64,000 bases of DNA, taken from assembly GCF_003790525.1 (NCBI RefSeq), contig NZ_CP033635.1, one strand, 5' to 3'. Positions 2,281 through 21,862 of this stretch are shown here, in pieces. The DNA is from Escherichia coli. GTDB lineage: Bacteria; Pseudomonadota; Gammaproteobacteria; Enterobacterales; Enterobacteriaceae. The notes under the pieces are model-generated. The model was not told the origin of the DNA and made no database searches. It saw nothing but the letters and a program-made list of their open reading frames with translations. Within the stretch, counting starts at the first letter, position 1, and each line of letters opens with the position of its first letter. Both the position numbers and the translations under genes were made by a program.

Positions 2281-3576
2281 ATGGTTAGTTTAGAGAAGAA
2301 CGATCACTTAATGTTGGCGCGCCAGCTGCCATTGAAATCTGTTGCCCTGATACTGGCGGGAGGACGTGGTACCCGCCTGAAGGATTTAACCAATAAGCGA
2401 GCAAAACCGGCCGTACACTTCGGCGGTAAGTTCCGCATTATCGACTTTGCGCTGTCTAACTGCATCAACTCCGGGATCCGTCGTATGGGCGTGATCACCC
2501 AGTACCAGTCCCACACTCTGGTGCAGCACATTCAGCGCGGCTGGTCATTCTTCAATGAAGAAATGAACGAGTTTGTCGATCTGCTGCCAGCACAGCAGAG
2601 AATGAAAGGGGAAAACTGGTATCGCGGCACCGCAGATGCGGTCACCCAAAACCTCGACATTATCCGCCGTTATAAAGCGGAATACGTGGTGATCCTGGCG
2701 GGCGACCATATCTACAAGCAAGACTACTCGCGTATGCTTATCGACCACGTCGAAAAAGGCGCACGTTGCACCGTTGCTTGTATGCCAGTACCGATTGAAG
2801 AAGCCTCCGCGTTTGGCGTTATGGCGGTTGATGAGAACGATAAAATTATCGAATTCGTTGAAAAACCAGCTAACCCGCCGTCAATGCCGAACGATCCGAG
2901 CAAATCTCTGGCGAGTATGGGTATTTACGTCTTTGACGCCGACTATCTGTATGAACTGCTGGAAGAAGACGATCGCGATGAGAACTCCAGCCACGACTTT
3001 GGCAAAGATTTGATTCCCAAGATCACCGAAGCCGGTCTGGCCTATGCGCATCCGTTCCCGCTCTCTTGCGTACAATCCGACCCGGATGCCGAGCCGTACT
3101 GGCGCGATGTGGGTACGCTGGAAGCTTACTGGAAAGCGAACCTCGATCTGGCCTCTGTGGTGCCGGAACTGGATATGTACGATCGCAATTGGCCAATTCG
3201 CACCTACAATGAATCATTACCGCCAGCGAAATTCGTGCAGGATCGCTCCGGTAGCCACGGGATGACCCTTAACTCACTGGTATCCGGCGGTTGTGTGATC
3301 TCCGGTTCGGTGGTGGTGCAGTCCGTTCTGTTCTCGCGCGTTCGCGTGAATTCATTCTGCAACATTGATTCCGCCGTATTGTTACCGGAAGTATGGGTAG
3401 GTCGCTCGTGCCGTCTGCGCCGCTGCGTCATCGATCGTGCTTGTGTTATTCCGGAAGGCATGGTGATTGGTGAAAACGCAGAGGAAGATGCACGTCGTTT
3501 CTATCGTTCAGAAGAAGGCATCGTGCTGGTAACGCGCGAAATGCTACGGAAGTTAGGGCATAAACAGGAGCGATAA
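2281..3576 (+). CDS. glgC: glucose-1-phosphate adenylyltransferase (431 aa)
   Basis: Track ORF 2245-3576; start trimmed to ATG 2281 ([17 protein letters not shown]...), giving the canonical length; nucleotidyltransferase motif GGRGTRL. Confidence 0.95.
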
Positions 3577-7591: not shown

Positions 7592-9109
7592 ATGGAAAGA
7601 ATAATGCAAAACGGAAAATGGATTTTGACCTCGCTGGTAATGACTTTTTTTGGCATCCCCATACTGGCGCAATTTTTGGCAGCGGTTGTTGCCATGCTGG
7701 GGGCCGGGCTTGCCGCTATTTTTGATGTTTGCAATTTACTCTTTACGCCAACAATTTATCTTCTACTCAACGTCTTTATGCTGACGCTGGGCGCATTACT
7801 GCTATTTTTCTCTGGGCGAGTGTGGGCGGGCGATAGCGCACCAGAAAACAGAGAAATAGCCGCCTGGCGACAATGTCTTTTTTTAGTTCCCGCTTTATTA
7901 ACCCTGGTTGGCTGGATAATCACGCTACATCTGGCAGATTATCAATTTCGCCAGATGGTTTCAGGTTGGTTGGCAAACCTTATGCTTCCCTGGTTGGGCG
8001 TTTTTACAGTCTCATTCGTCGGTGGTGAGTACTGGTGGATAGTCATTATTCCCGTTGGCGCGCATATCAGTTTTTCACTGGGATACGGCTGGCCGACCAG
8101 ACACCCTTTAACCGGCACCTCCGGTCTACGTTGCCGTAATTTACTTCTGTTCATTCTTCTCTTACTGGGTATTGTCGCTGGTTATCAGGCTTATTTATAT
8201 AAACAGCTTAATCCCGGCGTCGGTGTGCGTGAAAATATTGATACCTGGGCCTGGCGACCCGATAAACTTAATAATCAACTGACGCCACTGCGTGGTAAAC
8301 CACAAATTCAATTTACGCAAAACTGGCCGCGACTCGATGGCGCTACGGCGGCGTACCCCATTTATGCCTCTGCATTTTATGCATTAAGTGTAATACCAGA
8401 GGATTTTCACGTTTGGGATTATCTGGATAACTCTCGTACGCAAGAAGCATATAACAAAATCGTTAAGGGCGATGCTGATATTATTTTCGTGGCGCAACCT
8501 TCCGATGGGCAAAAAAAACGCGCTGAGAAATCGGGCGTCACTTTGCTGTACACGCCATTTGCCCGTGAAGCGTTTGTTTTCATCGTCAATGCGGATAATC
8601 CGGTTAATTCCCTGACTGAACAACAAGTGCGTGACATTTTTAGTGGCGCAATTACCAACTGGCGCACGGTTGGCGGTAACGATCAGGAGATCCAGACCTG
8701 GCAACGCCCGGAAGACTCTGGCAGCCAGACAGTGATGCAATCGCAGGTCATGAAAAATGTCCGCATGATCTCGCCGCAGGAAACCGAAGTGGCAAGCATG
8801 ATGGAGGGAATGATTAAAGTCGTTGCCGAATACCGTAATACAAACAACGCAATAGGCTACACCTTCCGCTATTACGCAACACAAATGAATGCCGATAAAA
8901 ATATAAAACTGCTAGCGATTAACGGTATTGCACCGACTGCGGAAAATATTCGTAACGGCAAATATCCGTATATCATCGATGCCTTTATGGTAACGCGGGA
9001 AAATACTACGTCAGAAACACAAAAACTGGTCGAATGGTTTTTAACGCCGCAGGGACAGAGTCTGGTGGAAGATGTGGGCTATGTGCCGCTGTATCCAACA
9101 ATGAAATAA
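7592..9109 (+). CDS. membrane-anchored PstS-like (phosphate-binding-protein fold) protein: N-terminal polytopic TM domain plus C-terminal PBP domain
   Basis: 505-aa ORF (a second ATG at 7604 has a better-spaced GGAAAG RBS). Residues 1-210 carry about 5-6 hydrophobic helices; the C-terminal 270 aa show PstS-like motifs (AAYPIYASAFY, RPEDSGSQTVM, AIGYTFRYYA) that align with E. coli PstS (FPAPVYAKWA, DGSGTSFVFTSY, AIGYVEYAYA). Possible -10 TATAAT at 7568-7573. Confidence 0.7.
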   Translation: MERIMQNGKWILTSLVMTFFGIPILAQFLAAVVAMLGAGLAAIFDVCNLLFTPTIYLLLNVFMLTLGALLLFFSGRVWAGDSAPENREIAAWRQCLFLVPALLTLVGWIITLHLADYQFRQMVSGWLANLMLPWLGVFTVSFVGGEYWWIVIIPVGAHISFSLGYGWPTRHPLTGTSGLRCRNLLLFILLLLGIVAGYQAYLYKQLNPGVGVRENIDTWAWRPDKLNNQLTPLRGKPQIQFTQNWPRLDGATAAYPIYASAFYALSVIPEDFHVWDYLDNSRTQEAYNKIVKGDADIIFVAQPSDGQKKRAEKSGVTLLYTPFAREAFVFIVNADNPVNSLTEQQVRDIFSGAITNWRTVGGNDQEIQTWQRPEDSGSQTVMQSQVMKNVRMISPQETEVASMMEGMIKVVAEYRNTNNAIGYTFRYYATQMNADKNIKLLAINGIAPTAENIRNGKYPYIIDAFMVTRENTTSETQKLVEWFLTPQGQSLVEDVGYVPLYPTMK

Positions 9110-10129: not shown

Positions 10130-10730
10130 ATGAATAAAATCAGACTTTATATTCCTCCGTTAATTCTTGGTTTTGTTATTGTGCCGTTGTTGGTGTGGCC
10201 GACGGTGGTTGCTCTGGCTGCTTGTGTTATCACGCTGAGTTTTATGGGAGAAATACTGTTCTCTATCCCGCTCATGTTCAGGCGTATTTCACTTCTGGAA
10301 TTCCAACTTGGGTTATTGGCTGAATATGCACTTTTTTTTTCTGTGCCATGTGTTGCGTTGGTTGGCAATTTTCTTGCAGAGCTCAATCTGAACTGAAAAG
10401 CAGACTCCATTGTTGGTTGGTATTTGCACCAGTTTATTTCTGGTTGCTCCTGTGGAATATCATTTTCTATGTCGCGCCAGCGCAAATTGCTTTGCTGGAA
10501 AATATGCGCAATTTCTTTCTGACCATTGTCTGGTTACCCCTGAATTTTTTCAATTTGGGTCTCAGCCGTGGACTGACTTTATCGGTCCGATAAGCGCCCA
10601 GCTTGGTTTTGCATTGGGATATTATTGCCAGTGGCGTAGCAAAAATAGAAGTCAGAGGAAGAAGTGGGGCGAGTGGGTAATGTGTCTGAGTTTTGTTACG
10701 TTGGGTATGATTGCGTGGGCTTTGCGGTAA
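10130..10730 (+). pseudogene. small integral membrane protein gene split over three reading frames (likely frameshift-inactivated), translationally coupled to the upstream PstS-like gene
   Basis: Three overlapping hydrophobic ORFs in three different frames (10130-10396, 10348-10593, 10410-10730). A T9 homopolymer at 10332-10340 sits exactly where restoring one T would join frame 1 to frame 2; a second one-base shift is needed before 10593 (a T6 run lies at 10545-10550). ATG 10130 is 2 nt after the upstream stop. Confidence 0.45.
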
Positions 10731-12450: not shown

Positions 12451-12561
12451 GCTGCCCTCATTCACTTTCGTTAAAGTTCATAAATGTTCGTTATCGAACA
12501 TATTAGCAAAGAATCGCGCTTTGGGTAACATTGAAAAAACATTTTAGAGTGATATGTATAA

Positions 12562-12966
<405 letters not shown>

Positions 12967-12998
12967 CGCTTTATACTGTCCCCTTTTGTGTGGAATAA

Positions 12999-13841
<843 letters not shown>

Positions 13842-13857
13842 TTCCAGGGATTTAGAA

Positions 13858-14616
13858 ATGAAACAAACACAACGTCACAACGGTATTATCGAACTGGTTA
13901 AACAGCAGGGTTATGTCAGCACCGAGGAGCTGGTAGAGCATTTCTCCGTTAGCCCGCAGACTATTCGCCGCGATCTCAACGAGCTGGCAGAGCAAAACCT
14001 GATCCTGCGCCATCATGGCGGTGCGGCGCTGCCTTCCAGTTCGGTTAATACGCCGTGGCACGATCGCAAGGCCACCCAGACCGAAGAAAAAGAGCGCATC
14101 GCCCGCAAAGTGGCGGAGCAAATTCCCAATGGCTCGACGCTGTTTATCGATATCGGCACCACGCCGGAAGCGGTGGCGCACGCGCTGCTTAATCACAGCA
14201 ATTTACGCATTGTGACCAACAATCTCAACGTCGCTAACACGCTGATGGTAAAAGAGGATTTCCGTATCATTCTTGCCGGTGGCGAATTACGCAGCCGCGA
14301 TGGCGGGATCATTGGCGAAGCAACGCTCGATTTTATCTCCCAGTTCCGCCTTGATTTCGGCATTCTGGGGATAAGCGGCATCGATAGCGACGGCTCGCTA
14401 CTGGAGTTCGATTACCACGAAGTTCGCACCAAACGCGCCATCATTGAGAACTCGCGCCACGTTATGCTGGTTGTCGACCACTCAAAATTTGGCCGTAACG
14501 CGATGGTCAATATGGGCAGTATCAGCATGGTAGATGCCGTCTACACCGACGCCCCGCCGCCAGTAAGCGTGATGCAGGTGCTGACGGACCACCATATTCA
14601 ACTGGAGCTGTGCTGA
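13858..14616 (+). CDS. glpR: glycerol-3-phosphate regulon repressor, DeoR family (252 aa)
   Basis: MKQTQRHNGIIELVKQQGYVSTEELVEHFSVSPQTIRRDL (DeoR HTH); start trimmed from track ORF 13807. Its 3' end overlaps the convergent rtcR 3' end by 19 nt. Confidence 0.9.
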   Translation: MKQTQRHNGIIELVKQQGYVSTEELVEHFSVSPQTIRRDLNELAEQNLILRHHGGAALPSSSVNTPWHDRKATQTEEKERIARKVAEQIPNGSTLFIDIGTTPEAVAHALLNHSNLRIVTNNLNVANTLMVKEDFRIILAGGELRSRDGGIIGEATLDFISQFRLDFGILGISGIDSDGSLLEFDYHEVRTKRAIIENSRHVMLVVDHSKFGRNAMVNMGSISMVDAVYTDAPPPVSVMQVLTDHHIQLELC

Positions 14617-16196
14617 TCCTGCACGGCTTCCCACGTCAGATTAAAACGCGCCAGGTATTTGCGTAGCCGATCCGCGTCGTTGACGCTGGCTTTCCCCTGG
14701 CGCGAAACGTCAAAAAGCTGGCGTCCGGCAGCGGAAAGCGACTTTGCCTGCCGGCAGATAGCTATAACATGTTCCAGTTGCATACGGTCAAAGAGGTCGA
14801 TGTTTTCTGCCTCAGCGCCCAGCAACGCCGTAAGCGCGGAAGGACGACTCTCCTGCCAGTTATAGCGCAGACGGTTTATCTCATCTCCAACCACTTCCAG
14901 AGTGATGCGTCCGCTAGTGGCAAAGGTTGCCATTCGCGTGACGCTGGCAGAAAGCTCGCGAAAGTTACCGCGCCATGCCGCCTGAGATGATGTTGCAAAG
15001 GCCAGCCAGGCGCGCCGCGCTTCGGTGTTAAAACGCACGCTGTCGCCGGTAAGTGAGGCGTGGCGCTCCACTTCATAATCCAGGTTAGGTTCAATATCTT
15101 CCTGGCGCTGGCGTAGCCCCGGCAGGGTGAAGGTCCAGAGATTGATCCGCGCGTACAGATCTTCGCGGAATTTGCCTTCGGCAACCAGCTGACGCAAATC
15201 GCGCACCGTTCCGGCGATCAGCTGAAAGTCGCTACTCACCTGGCGATCGCTGCCAAACGGATAAAAGGTTTTCTCTTCAATGGCTTTCAGCAGCATTGCC
15301 TGTTCGTCTGCGCCCAGTTCGCCAATCTCATCAAGAAATAACATCCCGCCGTTGGCGCTGCGTAATAATCCTTCCCGCGACTCCCGCGCCCCGGTAAACG
15401 CGCCTTTCACATGACCAAACAGCGCTGACATGGCGGTATCGCCGCGCAGAGTGGCACAGTTCACCTCCACAAACGCGCCGCTAAACTGATGCCGCGCCTG
15501 TTTTAACTCGAAGATGCGTCGTGCCAGAAACGACTTTCCCGCACCGGTTGGGCCGTTGAGCAGGATCGGTGCGCGGGATTTGATCGCCACTTTTTCGATC
15601 TGCTCAATCATGCGGTTGAAGTGGGCGTTACGCGTGGCAATGCCGGACTTAAGAAAATCGAGCGTTTGCTGGCGTTCCTCGGCAAAGCGGCTGGCGATGG
15701 CGTTATAACGGCTTAAATCGAGATCGATAATCGTCACTTCACCTGCACCGCGCGGCTGTTCTTTTTTACGCGGTGGCGAAGATTGTATTAACCTGGCGGG
15801 CAGGTAACGTGCTTCCGCCAGCAGAAACCAGCAAATCTGCGCGACGTGGGTACCGGTGGTGATGTGAATTAAATAGTCTTCTTTATCAGGTTCGAACGCG
15901 TAACCACGGGCGAAATCATGCAGGCAGGCGTAAACCTCCTCGAAATCCCATGGGTTATGCAGTTCAATCTCAACGCCCACCACTTTTGTTTCTGGCGAAA
16001 CATTGGCGATATCGCGTTTAAGCGTTTCAAACAGCGAGCGTGAGCGGGCGTCGTGCAACAATTCCAGTCGATTGATGACTAACGATTCTTGCTGGCATAG
16101 ACAGAGTGACGGACGCCATTTTGACCAGCGCTGACTGCCGCGCCCGGCATAATCCAACACCGTTCCGACAAAACCAAAAGCCACTGTTTTACGCAT
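14598..16196 (-). CDS. rtcR: sigma-54-dependent transcriptional activator of rtcBA (532 aa)
   Basis: AAA+ sigma-54 activator domain ([14 protein letters not shown] motif) with a C-terminal HTH; divergent from rtcB. Confidence 0.95.
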
Positions 16197-16329
16197 CTTA
16201 GATATCCTTATAAAAGACGATATTTCATTATCGGTAAATTGGCTTTGCGGGAAATCTCCGTTTACGGACGTAAAGATTTAATCTATTAAAAACAATGAAT
16301 TAAAAAATTAAGCTGCTTAATTAATTTTC

Positions 16330-16346
16330 TGGCACGACGGTTGCAA
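16330..16346 (+). promoter_or_regulatory. sigma-54 (-24/-12) promoter of rtcBA
   Basis: cTGGCACgacggTTGCAat matches the TGGCAC-N5-TTGCA consensus, about 40 nt upstream of the rtcB ATG and next to the sigma-54 activator gene rtcR. Confidence 0.7.
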
Positions 16347-16383
16347 TTATCTGGACAGCAAACAACGAAAAGAGAAAAATAAA

Positions 16384-17610
16384 ATGAATTACGAATTACT
16401 GACCACTGAAAATGTCCCGGTAAAAATGTGGACCAAAGGCGTACCGGTAGAAGACGATGCGCGTCAGCAACTGATAAATACGGCGAAGATGCCGTTTATT
16501 TTCAAACATATTGCGGTAATGCCTGATGTACATCTGGGTAAAGGTTCCACCATTGGTAGCGTGATCCCAACCAAAGGAGCGATTATTCCGGCGGCGGTGG
16601 GGGTAGATATCGGTTGTGGAATGAACGCGCTGCGTACCGCGTTAACGGCGGCTGACCTGCCTGAAAACCTGGCGGAGCTGCGTCAGGCGATTGAAGCTGC
16701 CGTGCCGCATGGGCGTACCACAGGCCGTTGTAAACGTGATAAAGGCGCATGGGAAAAACCGCCTGTTAACGTCGATGCGAAATGGGCTGAGCTTGAAGCC
16801 GGTTATCAGTGGTTAACGCAAAAATATCCGCGTTTCCTTAATACCAATAACTATAAACACCTGGGAACGCTGGGAACGGGTAACCACTTTATTGAAATTT
16901 GCCTTGATGAGTCGGATCAGGTGTGGATTATGCTGCACTCCGGTTCACGCGGAATTGGTAATGCCATCGGGACTTACTTTATCGATCTGGCGCAAAAAGA
17001 GATGCAGGAAACACTTGAAACGTTGCCATCGCGTGACCTGGCGTACTTTATGGAAGGTACGGAATATTTTGACGATTACCTGAAAGCGGTGGCCTGGGCG
17101 CAGCTTTTTGCCAGCCTTAACCGCGATGCGATGATGGAAAACGTGGTAACGGCGTTGCAGAGCGTTACGCAGAAAACGGTAAGACAGCCACAAACGCTGG
17201 CGATGGAAGAGATCAACTGTCACCACAACTATGTGCAAAAAGAACAGCACTTTAGCGAAGAGATCTATGTGACGCGTAAAGGCGCGGTGTCTGCTCGTGC
17301 TGGTCAATATGGAATTATTCCCGGTTCGATGGGGGCGAAAAGCTTTATTGTCCGTGGGCTGGGAAATGAAGAGTCGTTCTGTTCGTGCAGCCACGGTGCC
17401 GGGCGGGTAATGAGCCGTACTAAAGCGAAAAAACTGTTCAGTGTGGAAGACCAAATTCGTGCCACCGCGCATGTGGAATGCCGTAAAGATGCCGAAGTGA
17501 TCGACGAAATCCCGATGGCGTATAAAGATATTGATGCGGTGATGGCGGCACAAAGCGATCTGGTGGAAGTTATCTATACCCTGCGTCAGGTGGTGTGCGT
17601 AAAAGGATAA
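16384..17610 (+). CDS. rtcB: RNA-splicing ligase RtcB (408 aa)
   Basis: Full-length ORF with conserved RtcB metal-binding His/Cys motifs (GNHF, HSGSRG, CSHGAGR). Confidence 0.95.
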   Translation: MNYELLTTENVPVKMWTKGVPVEDDARQQLINTAKMPFIFKHIAVMPDVHLGKGSTIGSVIPTKGAIIPAAVGVDIGCGMNALRTALTAADLPENLAELRQAIEAAVPHGRTTGRCKRDKGAWEKPPVNVDAKWAELEAGYQWLTQKYPRFLNTNNYKHLGTLGTGNHFIEICLDESDQVWIMLHSGSRGIGNAIGTYFIDLAQKEMQETLETLPSRDLAYFMEGTEYFDDYLKAVAWAQLFASLNRDAMMENVVTALQSVTQKTVRQPQTLAMEEINCHHNYVQKEQHFSEEIYVTRKGAVSARAGQYGIIPGSMGAKSFIVRGLGNEESFCSCSHGAGRVMSRTKAKKLFSVEDQIRATAHVECRKDAEVIDEIPMAYKDIDAVMAAQSDLVEVIYTLRQVVCVKG

Positions 17611-18630
<1,020 letters not shown>

Positions 18631-18643
18631 TATAAAGATGTAA

Positions 18644-18667
18644 GCCGGATCCGACGTATTATCCGGC
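18644..18667. terminator. inverted repeat between the convergent rtcA and malT 3' ends (candidate bidirectional terminator)
   Basis: gccggat ccgacgtatt atccggc. Confidence 0.45.
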
Positions 18668-18672
18668 TAAAC

Positions 18673-21384
<2,712 letters not shown>

Positions 21385-21862
21385 TCACTTCACTGTGGAA
21401 TATGAGGAAATATTATTTTTTTTGCGCTTCGTAATTAATGGTTATAAGGTCGGCCAGAAACCTTTCTAATGCAAGCGATGACGTTTTTTTATGTGTCTGA
21501 ATTTGCACTCTGTCACAATTCCAAATCTTTATTAATGACTCACCTAAAACGACGCTGATCCAGCGTGAATGCTGGGTTGTACGGTATTTTCCTTATGTTC
21601 ATCAGTTTCATTTAAGCAAGGGTTTCTTCTTTATCCCTGATGAAAGTGCCATCTAAAAAGATGATCTTAATAAATCTATTAAGAATGAGATGGAGCACAC
21701 TTGATATTTTACTTATGAAACTGTTTCACTCCTTTACTTAATTTATAGAGTTACCTTCCGCTTTTTGAAAATACGCAACGGCCATTTTTTGCACTTAGAT
21801 ACAGATTTTCTGCGCTGTATGGCATTGATTTGCTGCTAATCCTGTGGTTTGCACTAGCTTTA

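Follow-up and report, generated by a model that had tools for sequence, protein, structure and literature searches.

The closest described relative of the locus considered here is rtcR/rtcBA of Escherichia coli K-12 (b3422, b3421, and b4475), which was reportedly first described, together with the original mapping of its promoter, by Genschik et al. in 1998 (J Biol Chem 273:25516). Like rtc, the pspF/pspABCDE system combines a divergent gene for an enhancer-binding protein with a sigma-54 operon. In the Psp system, the enhancer overlaps the region upstream of the activator gene itself, and looping is assisted by IHF. The two systems, between which a parallel has been drawn (PMC9650030), differ in that PspF lacks a sensor domain and is under the control of PspA, whereas RtcR has a CARF domain responding to RNA ends and to RtcA/RtcB. 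In Salmonella Typhimurium, rtcR is divergent from rsr-yrlBA-rtcBA, which is preceded by the sigma-54 promoter TGGCACGCTGGTTGCAAT (PMC3844500; PMC7790460); the activator logic is the same as in E. coli, but the Ro60 homolog gene rsr and Y RNAs are placed between promoter and rtcB. A Salmonella-like insertion is also indicated in Intestinirhabdus and Superficieibacter by YrlA matches and by the gap between promoter and rtcB, rsr itself not having been checked there by protein search.

Within the 64 kb stretch of E. coli DNA that was analyzed (the window), the gene order is glpG-glpR, rtcR, rtcBA, and malT, as in K-12. The locus can be identified because it matches E. coli SMS-3-5 at 100% over 4.3 kb, where the genes are annotated as rtcR, rtcB, and rtcA, and because it is collinear with K-12. 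Neighbors, orientation, the 17-nt sigma-54 element, and the predicted 28-nt leader are the same as in K-12, and the ORF lengths of rtcR, rtcB, rtcA, and glpR equal the K-12 and SMS-3-5 annotations. Differences from K-12 consist of a 4–6% nucleotide divergence, with 17, 7, and 12 amino acid changes in RtcR, RtcB, and RtcA (96.8, 98.3, and 96.5% identity; nine of the RtcR changes fall within the CARF domain), of an rtcR/rtcB spacer of 187 instead of 188 nt, and of an intact glpR, whereas that of MG1655 is a 758-nt frameshifted pseudogene. Unlike in Salmonella, rtcB directly follows the promoter, and an Rfam scan of positions 12500–21500 (E <= 1) gave no matches, so that Y RNAs and other known RNAs are absent from this segment. 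As judged from its sequence, the locus is almost certainly a complete and presumably functional copy of the canonical Rtc module. It is, with its sigma-54 promoter and its activator, already known and ordinary, and the present copy contains no new feature. The initial annotation had described a divergent rtcR/rtcBA arrangement with three full-length genes at 14598–16400; the layout is indeed that of the characterized K-12 locus and the three ORFs are intact (Table 1), and the range covers rtcR and the promoter, but the operon extends to 18630.

Table 1. Features of the rtcR–rtcBA locus and its borders (positions in the window).
Feature	Coordinates	Strand	Remarks
glpR, DeoR-family glycerol-3-phosphate regulon repressor	13858..14616	+	252 aa, intact
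glpR/rtcR convergent CDS overlap, 3' ends	14598..14616	.	19 nt, from ORF coordinates
10-bp G+C-rich hairpin across glpR stop codon	14604..14630	.	no U tract on either strand
rtcR, sigma-54 enhancer-binding activator	14598..16196	-	532 aa, full length
RtcR AAA+ sigma-54 interaction domain, aa 187-354	15135..15638	-	Pfam PF00158, E = 9.5e-51
RtcR N-terminal CARF-type regulatory domain, aa 2-185	15642..16193	-	Pfam PF06956, E = 2e-84
Candidate RtcR enhancer (UAS), palindrome CGATA-N6-TATCG	16218..16233	.	-138 to -123 from predicted rtcB start
Putative IHF-like site AAACAATGAATTA	16290..16302	+	-66 to -54; one mismatch to WATCAANNNNTTR
Sigma-54 promoter CTGGCACGACGGTTGCA	16329..16345	+	GG -25/-24 = 16331-16332; GC -13/-12 = 16343-16344
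Predicted rtcBA start C16356 and 28-nt leader	16356..16383	+	19 bp downstream of motif center
rtcB, RNA 3'-phosphate/2',3'-cyclic phosphate to 5'-OH ligase	16384..17610	+	408 aa, full length
rtcA, RNA 3'-terminal phosphate cyclase	17614..18630	+	338 aa, full length
8-bp hairpin AGCCGGAU/AUCCGGCU, REP-like	18643..18668	.	in 42-nt spacer between convergent rtcA and malT

Family models and sequence motifs agree with these assignments. RtcR aligns with the NCBIfam equivalog NF038308 over residues 1–527 (843.7 bits, cutoff 650), and in Pfam the RtcR/CARF and Sigma54_activat domains are followed by an AAA lid at residues 362–442. The Walker A sequence GPTGAGK (residue 215, nt 15534–15554), the GAFTGA loop (residue 265, nt 15387–15404), and the Walker B stretch MLFLDE (residues 285–290) are all present. 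Beyond residue 442 Pfam gives no match to an HTH domain, and the same region lies within the NF038308 alignment. A sequence search of the PDB with RtcR matched only the AAA+ domains of other activators and no structure of an RtcR CARF or DNA-binding domain; a regulatory function of the CARF domain is known from the literature (PMC7790460; PMC9650030). RtcB contains the full-length Pfam domain PF01139 (residues 29–408, 445.7 bits) with the guanylylated histidine and the metal ligands (D75, C78, H168, H185, H281, and H337), H337 having been mutated elsewhere as the catalytic residue (PMC5175333); it falls below the cutoffs of the NCBIfam RtcB-family models, which describe other RtcB subfamilies. 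RtcA reaches 771.9 bits with NF003247 (cutoff 333, equivalog level) and possesses His308, the position of the adenylylated histidine, at which H308A is a catalytic mutant (PMC5175333). The rtcA gene begins 3 nt past the rtcB stop codon according to the RefSeq start, and a second in-frame ATG is located at 17611. The glpR product carries HTH_DeoR and DeoRC domains (Pfam) and scores 552.8 bits with NCBIfam NF008154 (cutoff 331). From the 96.5–98.3% identity to the characterized K-12 proteins, the present copy may be expected to have cyclase and ligase activity as well and to be induced by damaged RNA.

Positions 16330–16345 read TGGCACGACGGTTGCA, i.e., TGGCAC-GACGG-TTGCA, with A as the next base at 16346. 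This is the exact consensus, with the GG and GC doublets 10 bp apart, and nowhere else does the window match TGGCACN5TTGCW without a mismatch. The element is located in the rtcR/rtcB gap directly upstream of rtcB and 132 nt from the divergent rtcR. With a sigma-54 matrix built from 41 other verified ChIP-seq sites (range 8.0–21.7, median 15.9 bits), it scores 17.2 bits, above the median of the verified sites and higher than any other of the about 128,000 positions in the window. CTGGCACGACGGTTGCA is base for base the K-12 ChIP-seq site OS35, which is bound by sigma-54 (FAT 17) and whose promoter is experimentally confirmed according to EcoCyc (PMC4591121). The element has remained the same as in K-12 within a spacer that carries seven substitutions and one indel. 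Of 18 RtcR loci from distant phyla, ranging from Escherichia to Desulfovibrio, 17 have a sigma-54 site of 12.9–18.9 bits at 126–196 nt upstream of rtcR. The promoter that the initial annotation had proposed for rtcB is thus confirmed, chiefly by its position, its identity to a ChIP-bound site, and its conservation; the matrix score and the predicted start, on which the annotation might have failed, are also in its favor. The predicted rtcBA start agrees with that given for K-12 rtcB, 28 nt before the ATG, which was likewise predicted at a fixed 19 bp and not mapped (PMC4591121), and A at -1 and C at +1 fit the ApC primer used on the native promoter (PMC9650030). The leader contains a weak Shine-Dalgarno sequence, AAGAGA, at 16370–16375. 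Despite its near-consensus sequence the native promoter is very weak in vitro (PMC9650030), and other inputs to rtcBA exist, since under some conditions induction does not depend on RtcR (table in PMC9650030).

According to the literature, both an upstream enhancer and an IHF site exist at the rtc promoter, the latter described in PMC9650030. The candidate for the enhancer is the palindrome CGATA-N6-TATCG, situated 22–37 nt upstream of the rtcR ATG, which occurs once in the window vs. 0.05 times expected and is invariant across four enterobacterial genera in which the surrounding spacer diverges. The motif was defined post hoc, after inspection of the sequences. N6-spaced GATA/TATC palindromes adjoin rtcR in 8 of 14 non-redundant loci as compared with none in 2000 shuffles, and the palindrome falls into a 175-nt fragment with RtcR-dependent reporter activity (PMC5175333). 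Being close to the rtcR start, it could alternatively be a promoter or operator element of rtcR, or it could serve from enterobacteria to Pseudomonas both as rtcBA enhancer and as autoregulatory operator of rtcR, which would be a milder novel reading. A sigma-70 scan for an rtcR promoter on the minus strand of the rtcR/rtcB spacer found none; that GATAAT, the complement of 16228–16233, is the -10 element of rtcR is a guess. As for the putative IHF-like site, perfect matches are present at the same offset in Iodobacter, Accumulibacter, and three Pseudomonas (center 33–35 nt before the -24 motif). The spacing of rtcR start, candidate enhancer, IHF-like site, and -24 element is remarkably constant. 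Two other repeats of the spacer were set aside. The palindrome AATTAAGC-T-GCTTAATT (16306–16322) is not regarded as functional, since it owes its perfect symmetry to one base change found in this allele alone, K-12 and other Escherichia having GCTTATTT. The repeat TTTACG-GA-CGTAAA (16261–16274) is disfavored as enhancer. Its left arm plus spacer, TTTACGGAC, is common to most Escherichia (GTTACG in K-12), but its right arm CGTAAA occurs only in the present window, K-12, and Escherichia sp. E1V33, whereas E. albertii, E. whittamii, and Escherichia sp. MOD1 have another sequence there; other enterobacterial genera lack the repeat.

Taken with published work (PMC9650030; PMC5175333; PMC7790460), these elements suggest the following course of events, for which sigma-54 and RtcR dependence, signal, and enzyme activities are adopted from K-12 and Salmonella, gene identities, motifs, promoter identity and conservation, and the glpR overlap are read from the present DNA, and the exact positions of enhancer, IHF site, and start in the present strain are predicted. 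Transcribed leftward, rtcR would supply an activator with an N-terminal CARF-type sensor, a central AAA+ domain contacting sigma-54, and a C-terminal DNA-binding region, in which the sensor would keep the ATPase inactive at rest. RNA damage would generate the inducing signal, for which tRNA fragments with 2',3'-cyclic phosphate ends have been described in K-12 and Salmonella, RtcA and RtcB themselves also binding the CARF domain, and RtcR would then oligomerize on the upstream enhancer, possibly the above palindrome. DNA bent by IHF, perhaps at the IHF-like site, would bring RtcR to the closed complex of sigma-54 RNA polymerase at the promoter, and ATP hydrolysis would lead to the open complex and to transcription from near C16356. 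From the rtcBA mRNA the two enzymes would be made, RtcA presumably converting RNA 3'-phosphate ends to 2',3'-cyclic phosphates and RtcB joining 3'-phosphate/2',3'-cyclic phosphate ends to 5'-OH ends.

It is highly improbable that the match upstream of rtcB is a chance or inert sigma-54 site and that rtcBA is driven by another, e.g., sigma-70 type, promoter. Matrix score alone is not decisive, because 30 of the 200 windows of 64 kb that were simulated (15%; p about 0.15 per 64 kb) contain a position with 17.2 bits or more, and the count of one-mismatch consensus matches in the window (5 vs. 3.7 expected) is not significant. The majority of sigma-54 binding sites in E. coli lie inside genes and are inactive (PMC4591121), some rtcBA reporters are induced independently of RtcR, and a weak sigma-70-like match, TGGACA-17-AAAAAT, is present at 16352–16380. 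However, that match has only 9 of 12 positions and is found once vs. 0.8 times expected from shuffled sequence, and reporter activity in K-12 and Salmonella needs RtcR and sigma-54. The weight of the promoter call lies in position and orientation, in identity to the ChIP-bound, confirmed K-12 site, and in conservation across taxa. There is similarly very little to recommend the view that the locus looks intact yet is functionally decaying in the present lineage. The rtc genes have diverged from K-12 by 4.2–6.1%, more than the flanking genes (1.8–2.6%), and of 5426 complete E. coli genomes 569 (about 10%) are without promoter plus rtcB, for which reason the earlier label of expected core biology, although it fits the known K-12 arrangement, is slightly too strong. 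Almost all of this loss goes back to one shared 3.2 kb deletion, the junction of which is present in 565 genomes; there are two independent deletions, and both retain the 3' end of rtcR. Against decay of the present copy, its genes carry no stops or frameshifts, all catalytic and ATPase motifs are in place, the promoter element is unchanged, and the substitutions are mostly synonymous (97 nt vs. 17 aa in rtcR, 52 nt vs. 7 aa in rtcB).

The overlap of the 3' ends of glpR and rtcR on opposite strands, which the initial annotation had put at 19 nt, is confirmed; it is the same in K-12 (8849–8867 of the K-12 sequence compared) and SMS-3-5, and tblastn end points place it in four other Escherichia and in K. 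oxytoca. That it leaves no room for separate terminators, hence the potential for transcriptional interference, seems a reasonable inference. A search for intrinsic terminators at 14300–18900 yielded four vs. 6.2 expected, with none at the overlap, on either strand, or right after rtcA. The stable hairpin straddling the glpR stop codon (-16.4 kcal/mol; z = -2.8 in its 121-nt context) is identical in K-12 and E. albertii. From overlap, hairpin, and the lack of a canonical terminator one might suppose that glpR and rtcR regulate each other by antisense transcription, but this is doubtful. Equally unlikely is the wider proposal that such transcription damps the partner gene, which, if true, would link control of the glycerol-3-phosphate regulon to inducibility of the RNA-repair operon. 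The overlap is kept in Escherichia and Klebsiella and in both rtc deletions; however, retention in the deletions is not evidence of coupling, because they must spare the glpR stop codon anyway. Furthermore, in compact bacterial genomes convergent genes frequently overlap by a short stretch, glpR and rtcR are both weakly expressed regulators, the 3' arm of the hairpin varies in other Escherichia, and a literature search found no relevant work on this overlap. At the other end of the operon, the rtcA/malT hairpin (-12.2 kcal/mol on the plus strand, z = -2.0; -16.6 on the minus strand, z = -2.5), whose stem is conserved in K-12, is possibly a shared 3' end element.

As a discovery the rtc locus matters little, since it has been studied since 1998. 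It serves rather as a positive control, in which a real sigma-54 promoter and an operon without defects were correctly recognized by reading of the sequence alone. By-products that may be of use to those working on Rtc are a concrete candidate for the site bound by RtcR, which is conserved among widely separated taxa, the constant spacing of the promoter region, and the shared 3.2 kb deletion. Because this deletion is carried by roughly a tenth of the complete E. coli genomes, at least one successful lineage of the species can do without Rtc.

The window is E. coli chromosome, and its segment 14400-18700 is 100% identical to that of strain SMS-3-5 and of some two dozen further complete genomes, in which a DeoR/GlpR regulator, rtcR, rtcB, rtcA, and malT are annotated. 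The initial annotation had described an intact textbook rtc locus, and its observation is borne out and its interpretation supported. The three rtc genes are full length, with neither stop codons nor frameshifts, and their functional motifs are in place, i.e., Walker A (GPTGAGK), the sigma-54-contacting GAFTGA loop, and Walker B in RtcR, His337 and the metal-binding residues in RtcB, and His308 in RtcA. Family assignments are firm, as RtcR reaches 843.7 bits with its NCBIfam equivalog (cutoff 650), RtcA 771.9 bits (equivalog cutoff 333), GlpR 552.8 bits (equivalog cutoff 331), and RtcB 445.7 bits with a Pfam model covered over the whole domain.

Features of the rtc region and of comparison loci (window coordinates unless a locus is named)
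Feature	Coordinates	Strand	Remarks
Third-best sigma-54 match	7970-7986	+	14.7 bits
Second-best sigma-54 match	10362-10378	+	15.2 bits
glpG	13011-13841	+	276 aa
glpR	13858-14616	+	252 aa
rtcR	14598-16196	-	532 aa
Hairpin at glpR stop codon	14604-14630		10 bp, -16.4 kcal/mol
Candidate enhancer	16218-16233		CGATA-N6-TATCG
Candidate IHF-like site	16290-16302		AAACAATGAATTA, -66 to -54
Perfect palindrome	16306-16322		AATTAAGC-T-GCTTAATT, 8 bp
Promoter element	16329-16345	+	CTGGCACGACGGTTGCA; TGGCAC-GACGG-TTGCA at 16330-16345
rtcB	16384-17610	+	408 aa
rtcA	17614-18630	+	338 aa; second in-frame ATG at 17611
REP-like hairpin	18643-18668		8 bp
malT	18673-21378	-	901 aa
glpR/rtcR overlap, K-12 (L001)	8849-8867
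tRNA-like gene, Accumulibacter (L009)	1784-1851
tRNA-like gene, Pseudomonas sp. GD03944 (L010)	3137-3209
Non-adjacent promoter/rtcB or RNA features, related RtcR locus L007	1433-1674
Same, related RtcR locus L018	1343-1716
Same, related RtcR locus L013	874-1322

Gene set, order, orientation, and lengths match those of K-12 MG1655, with 17, 7, and 12 residue differences in RtcR, RtcB, and RtcA, respectively, whereas glpR, intact here, is a 758-nt frameshifted pseudogene in the MG1655 reference record. Divergence from K-12 is two- to threefold higher in the rtc genes than in their neighbors (4.2-6.1% versus 1.8-2.6% for glpG and malT) and is mostly synonymous. At 99% identity or more over 14400-18700, this allele is matched by only 25 records. 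Weak codon constraint, or an allele that is old or imported, may account for this.

The sigma-54 promoter proposed upstream of rtcB and divergent from rtcR is the sole exact TGGCACN5TTGCW match in the window. In the weight-matrix scan proposed with the initial annotation, the matrix being built from 41 K-12 sigma-54 sites bound in ChIP-seq (PMC4591121 Table 1) with the rtcB site excluded, it scores 17.2 bits, the highest of about 128,000 window positions and above the median of verified sites (15.9 bits). However, this score alone proves nothing, since among 200 simulated 64 kb windows 30 had a match as good or better. What settles that the promoter is more than a chance match is its position, its identity to a known site, and its conservation. 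The gap immediately before rtcB in which it lies measures 187 nt, and the sigma-54 activator gene rtcR starts 132 nt away. In K-12 the same 17-mer constitutes site OS35, at which sigma-54 was bound in vivo (fold above threshold 17) and which EcoCyc marks as experimentally confirmed (PMC4591121). The element itself does not differ from K-12, in contrast to the spacer around it, where there are 7 substitutions and 1 indel. In an unbiased set of 18 loci, obtained with RtcR protein as query against 100,044 species genomes, 17 have a sigma-54 site (12.9-18.9 bits) divergent from rtcR, at 126-196 nt from the start of that gene; they come from Escherichia, Klebsiella, Iodobacter, Accumulibacter, Pseudomonas, one Calditrichia genome, and several Desulfobacterota. 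By the rule of 19 bp after the motif centre (PMC4591121), rtcBA transcription is predicted to start at C16356, which gives a 28-nt distance to the rtcB ATG, as listed for K-12 (PMC4591121), and A16355/C16356 is consistent with the ApC primer for the native promoter in vitro (PMC9650030). Despite its sequence, the native promoter is described as very weak in vitro, and some rtcBA-inducing conditions are independent of RtcR (PMC9650030). The two next-best matrix matches fall within genes, one a frameshifted hypothetical and one of the PstS family, on an insert of about 3.5 kb between glgP and glpD, for which the SMS-3-5 annotation gives two PstS-family genes and the frameshifted gene.

Regulation has been described in publications on K-12 and Salmonella, from which, and not from the window, the following mechanism is taken. 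The 2',3'-cyclic phosphate ends produced by RtcA are joined to 5'-OH ends by RtcB. Deletion of the RtcR CARF domain renders rtcBA expression constitutive; this domain is bound in Salmonella by tRNA fragments with 2',3'-cyclic phosphate ends and in E. coli by RtcA and RtcB, both of which are required for activation in vivo, and RtcR at an upstream activating sequence, aided by an IHF site, acts on sigma-54 polymerase at -24/-12 (PMC5175333, PMC7790460, PMC9650030).

Phylogenetic footprinting of the rtcR-rtcB spacer over four enterobacterial genera was used to place these upstream elements and revealed only two conserved islands, one consisting of the promoter and part of the leader, the other adjoining rtcR and including the invariant palindrome CGATA-N6-TATCG. 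We propose this palindrome, whose centre is some 130 nt before the predicted start, as a candidate RtcR enhancer because it lies in a conserved island, is unique in the window (1 observed versus 0.05 expected), recurs near rtcR, and falls inside a 175-nt fragment giving RtcR-dependent reporter activity (PMC5175333). With a motif defined post hoc, after data inspection, 8 of 14 non-redundant loci, Pseudomonas and Accumulibacter among them, have a GATA/TATC palindrome of the same 6-nt spacing at 7-34 nt from the start of rtcR; the other 114 kb of these loci are almost free of such palindromes, and none of 2000 shuffles reaches the 8-locus count. Lying so close to rtcR, the palindrome could equally be an operator of rtcR itself. 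Besides this candidate enhancer, a second upstream candidate is the IHF-like site, which has one mismatch to the IHF consensus; Iodobacter, Accumulibacter, and three Pseudomonas have a perfect consensus at the same offset. Just upstream of the -24 element, a perfect palindrome has been created by one allele-specific substitution, K-12 and other Escherichia reading GCTTATTT.

The 19-nt overlap of the glpR and rtcR coding sequences on opposite strands, noted initially, follows from the ORF ends and is exactly the same in K-12; tblastn end points give it also for four other Escherichia species or lineages and Klebsiella oxytoca. A scan of both strands around the overlap gave no canonical intrinsic terminator, and the hairpin spanning the glpR stop codon, identical in K-12, lacks a U tract and has a 3' arm that varies in other Escherichia. 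Transcriptional interference, as had been suggested initially, is therefore possible. A literature search on it returned nothing relevant. At the other end, the REP-like hairpin in the 42-nt spacer between the convergent rtcA and malT could serve both genes. Of the 200-nt bins compared with K-12, this spacer diverges the most (87.5%), but its hairpin stem is conserved.

In several related RtcR loci, unlike in this E. coli, rtcB does not immediately follow the sigma-54 promoter. Upstream of rtcB, Intestinirhabdus and Superficieibacter carry YrlA Y RNAs, in which they resemble the Salmonella rsr-yrlBA-rtcBA operon, and the Calditrichia locus has YrlA and tRNA-like genes. A tRNA-like gene of Pseudomonas sp. 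GD03944 follows the promoter at about 120 nt; the one in Accumulibacter is some 170 nt farther off.

Within E. coli, promoter and rtcB are present in 4857 of 5426 complete genomes and absent from 569 (about 10%). In 565 of these the deletion junction is the same, at a 10-nt microhomology that is imperfect and ends in CATG; about 3,246 bp (~14978-18223) are gone, with the promoter and rtcB as well as three quarters of rtcR and 60% of rtcA, leaving the 3' 399 nt of rtcR and the 3' 420 nt of rtcA (compared with the retrieved loci L024 and L023). In strain SCPM-O-B-8794 the deletion is another one (about 14691-18490). The system described here was already known, and its form is the standard one for E. 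coli, as the term textbook implied, but the rtc locus is not universal in the species, as core would require.
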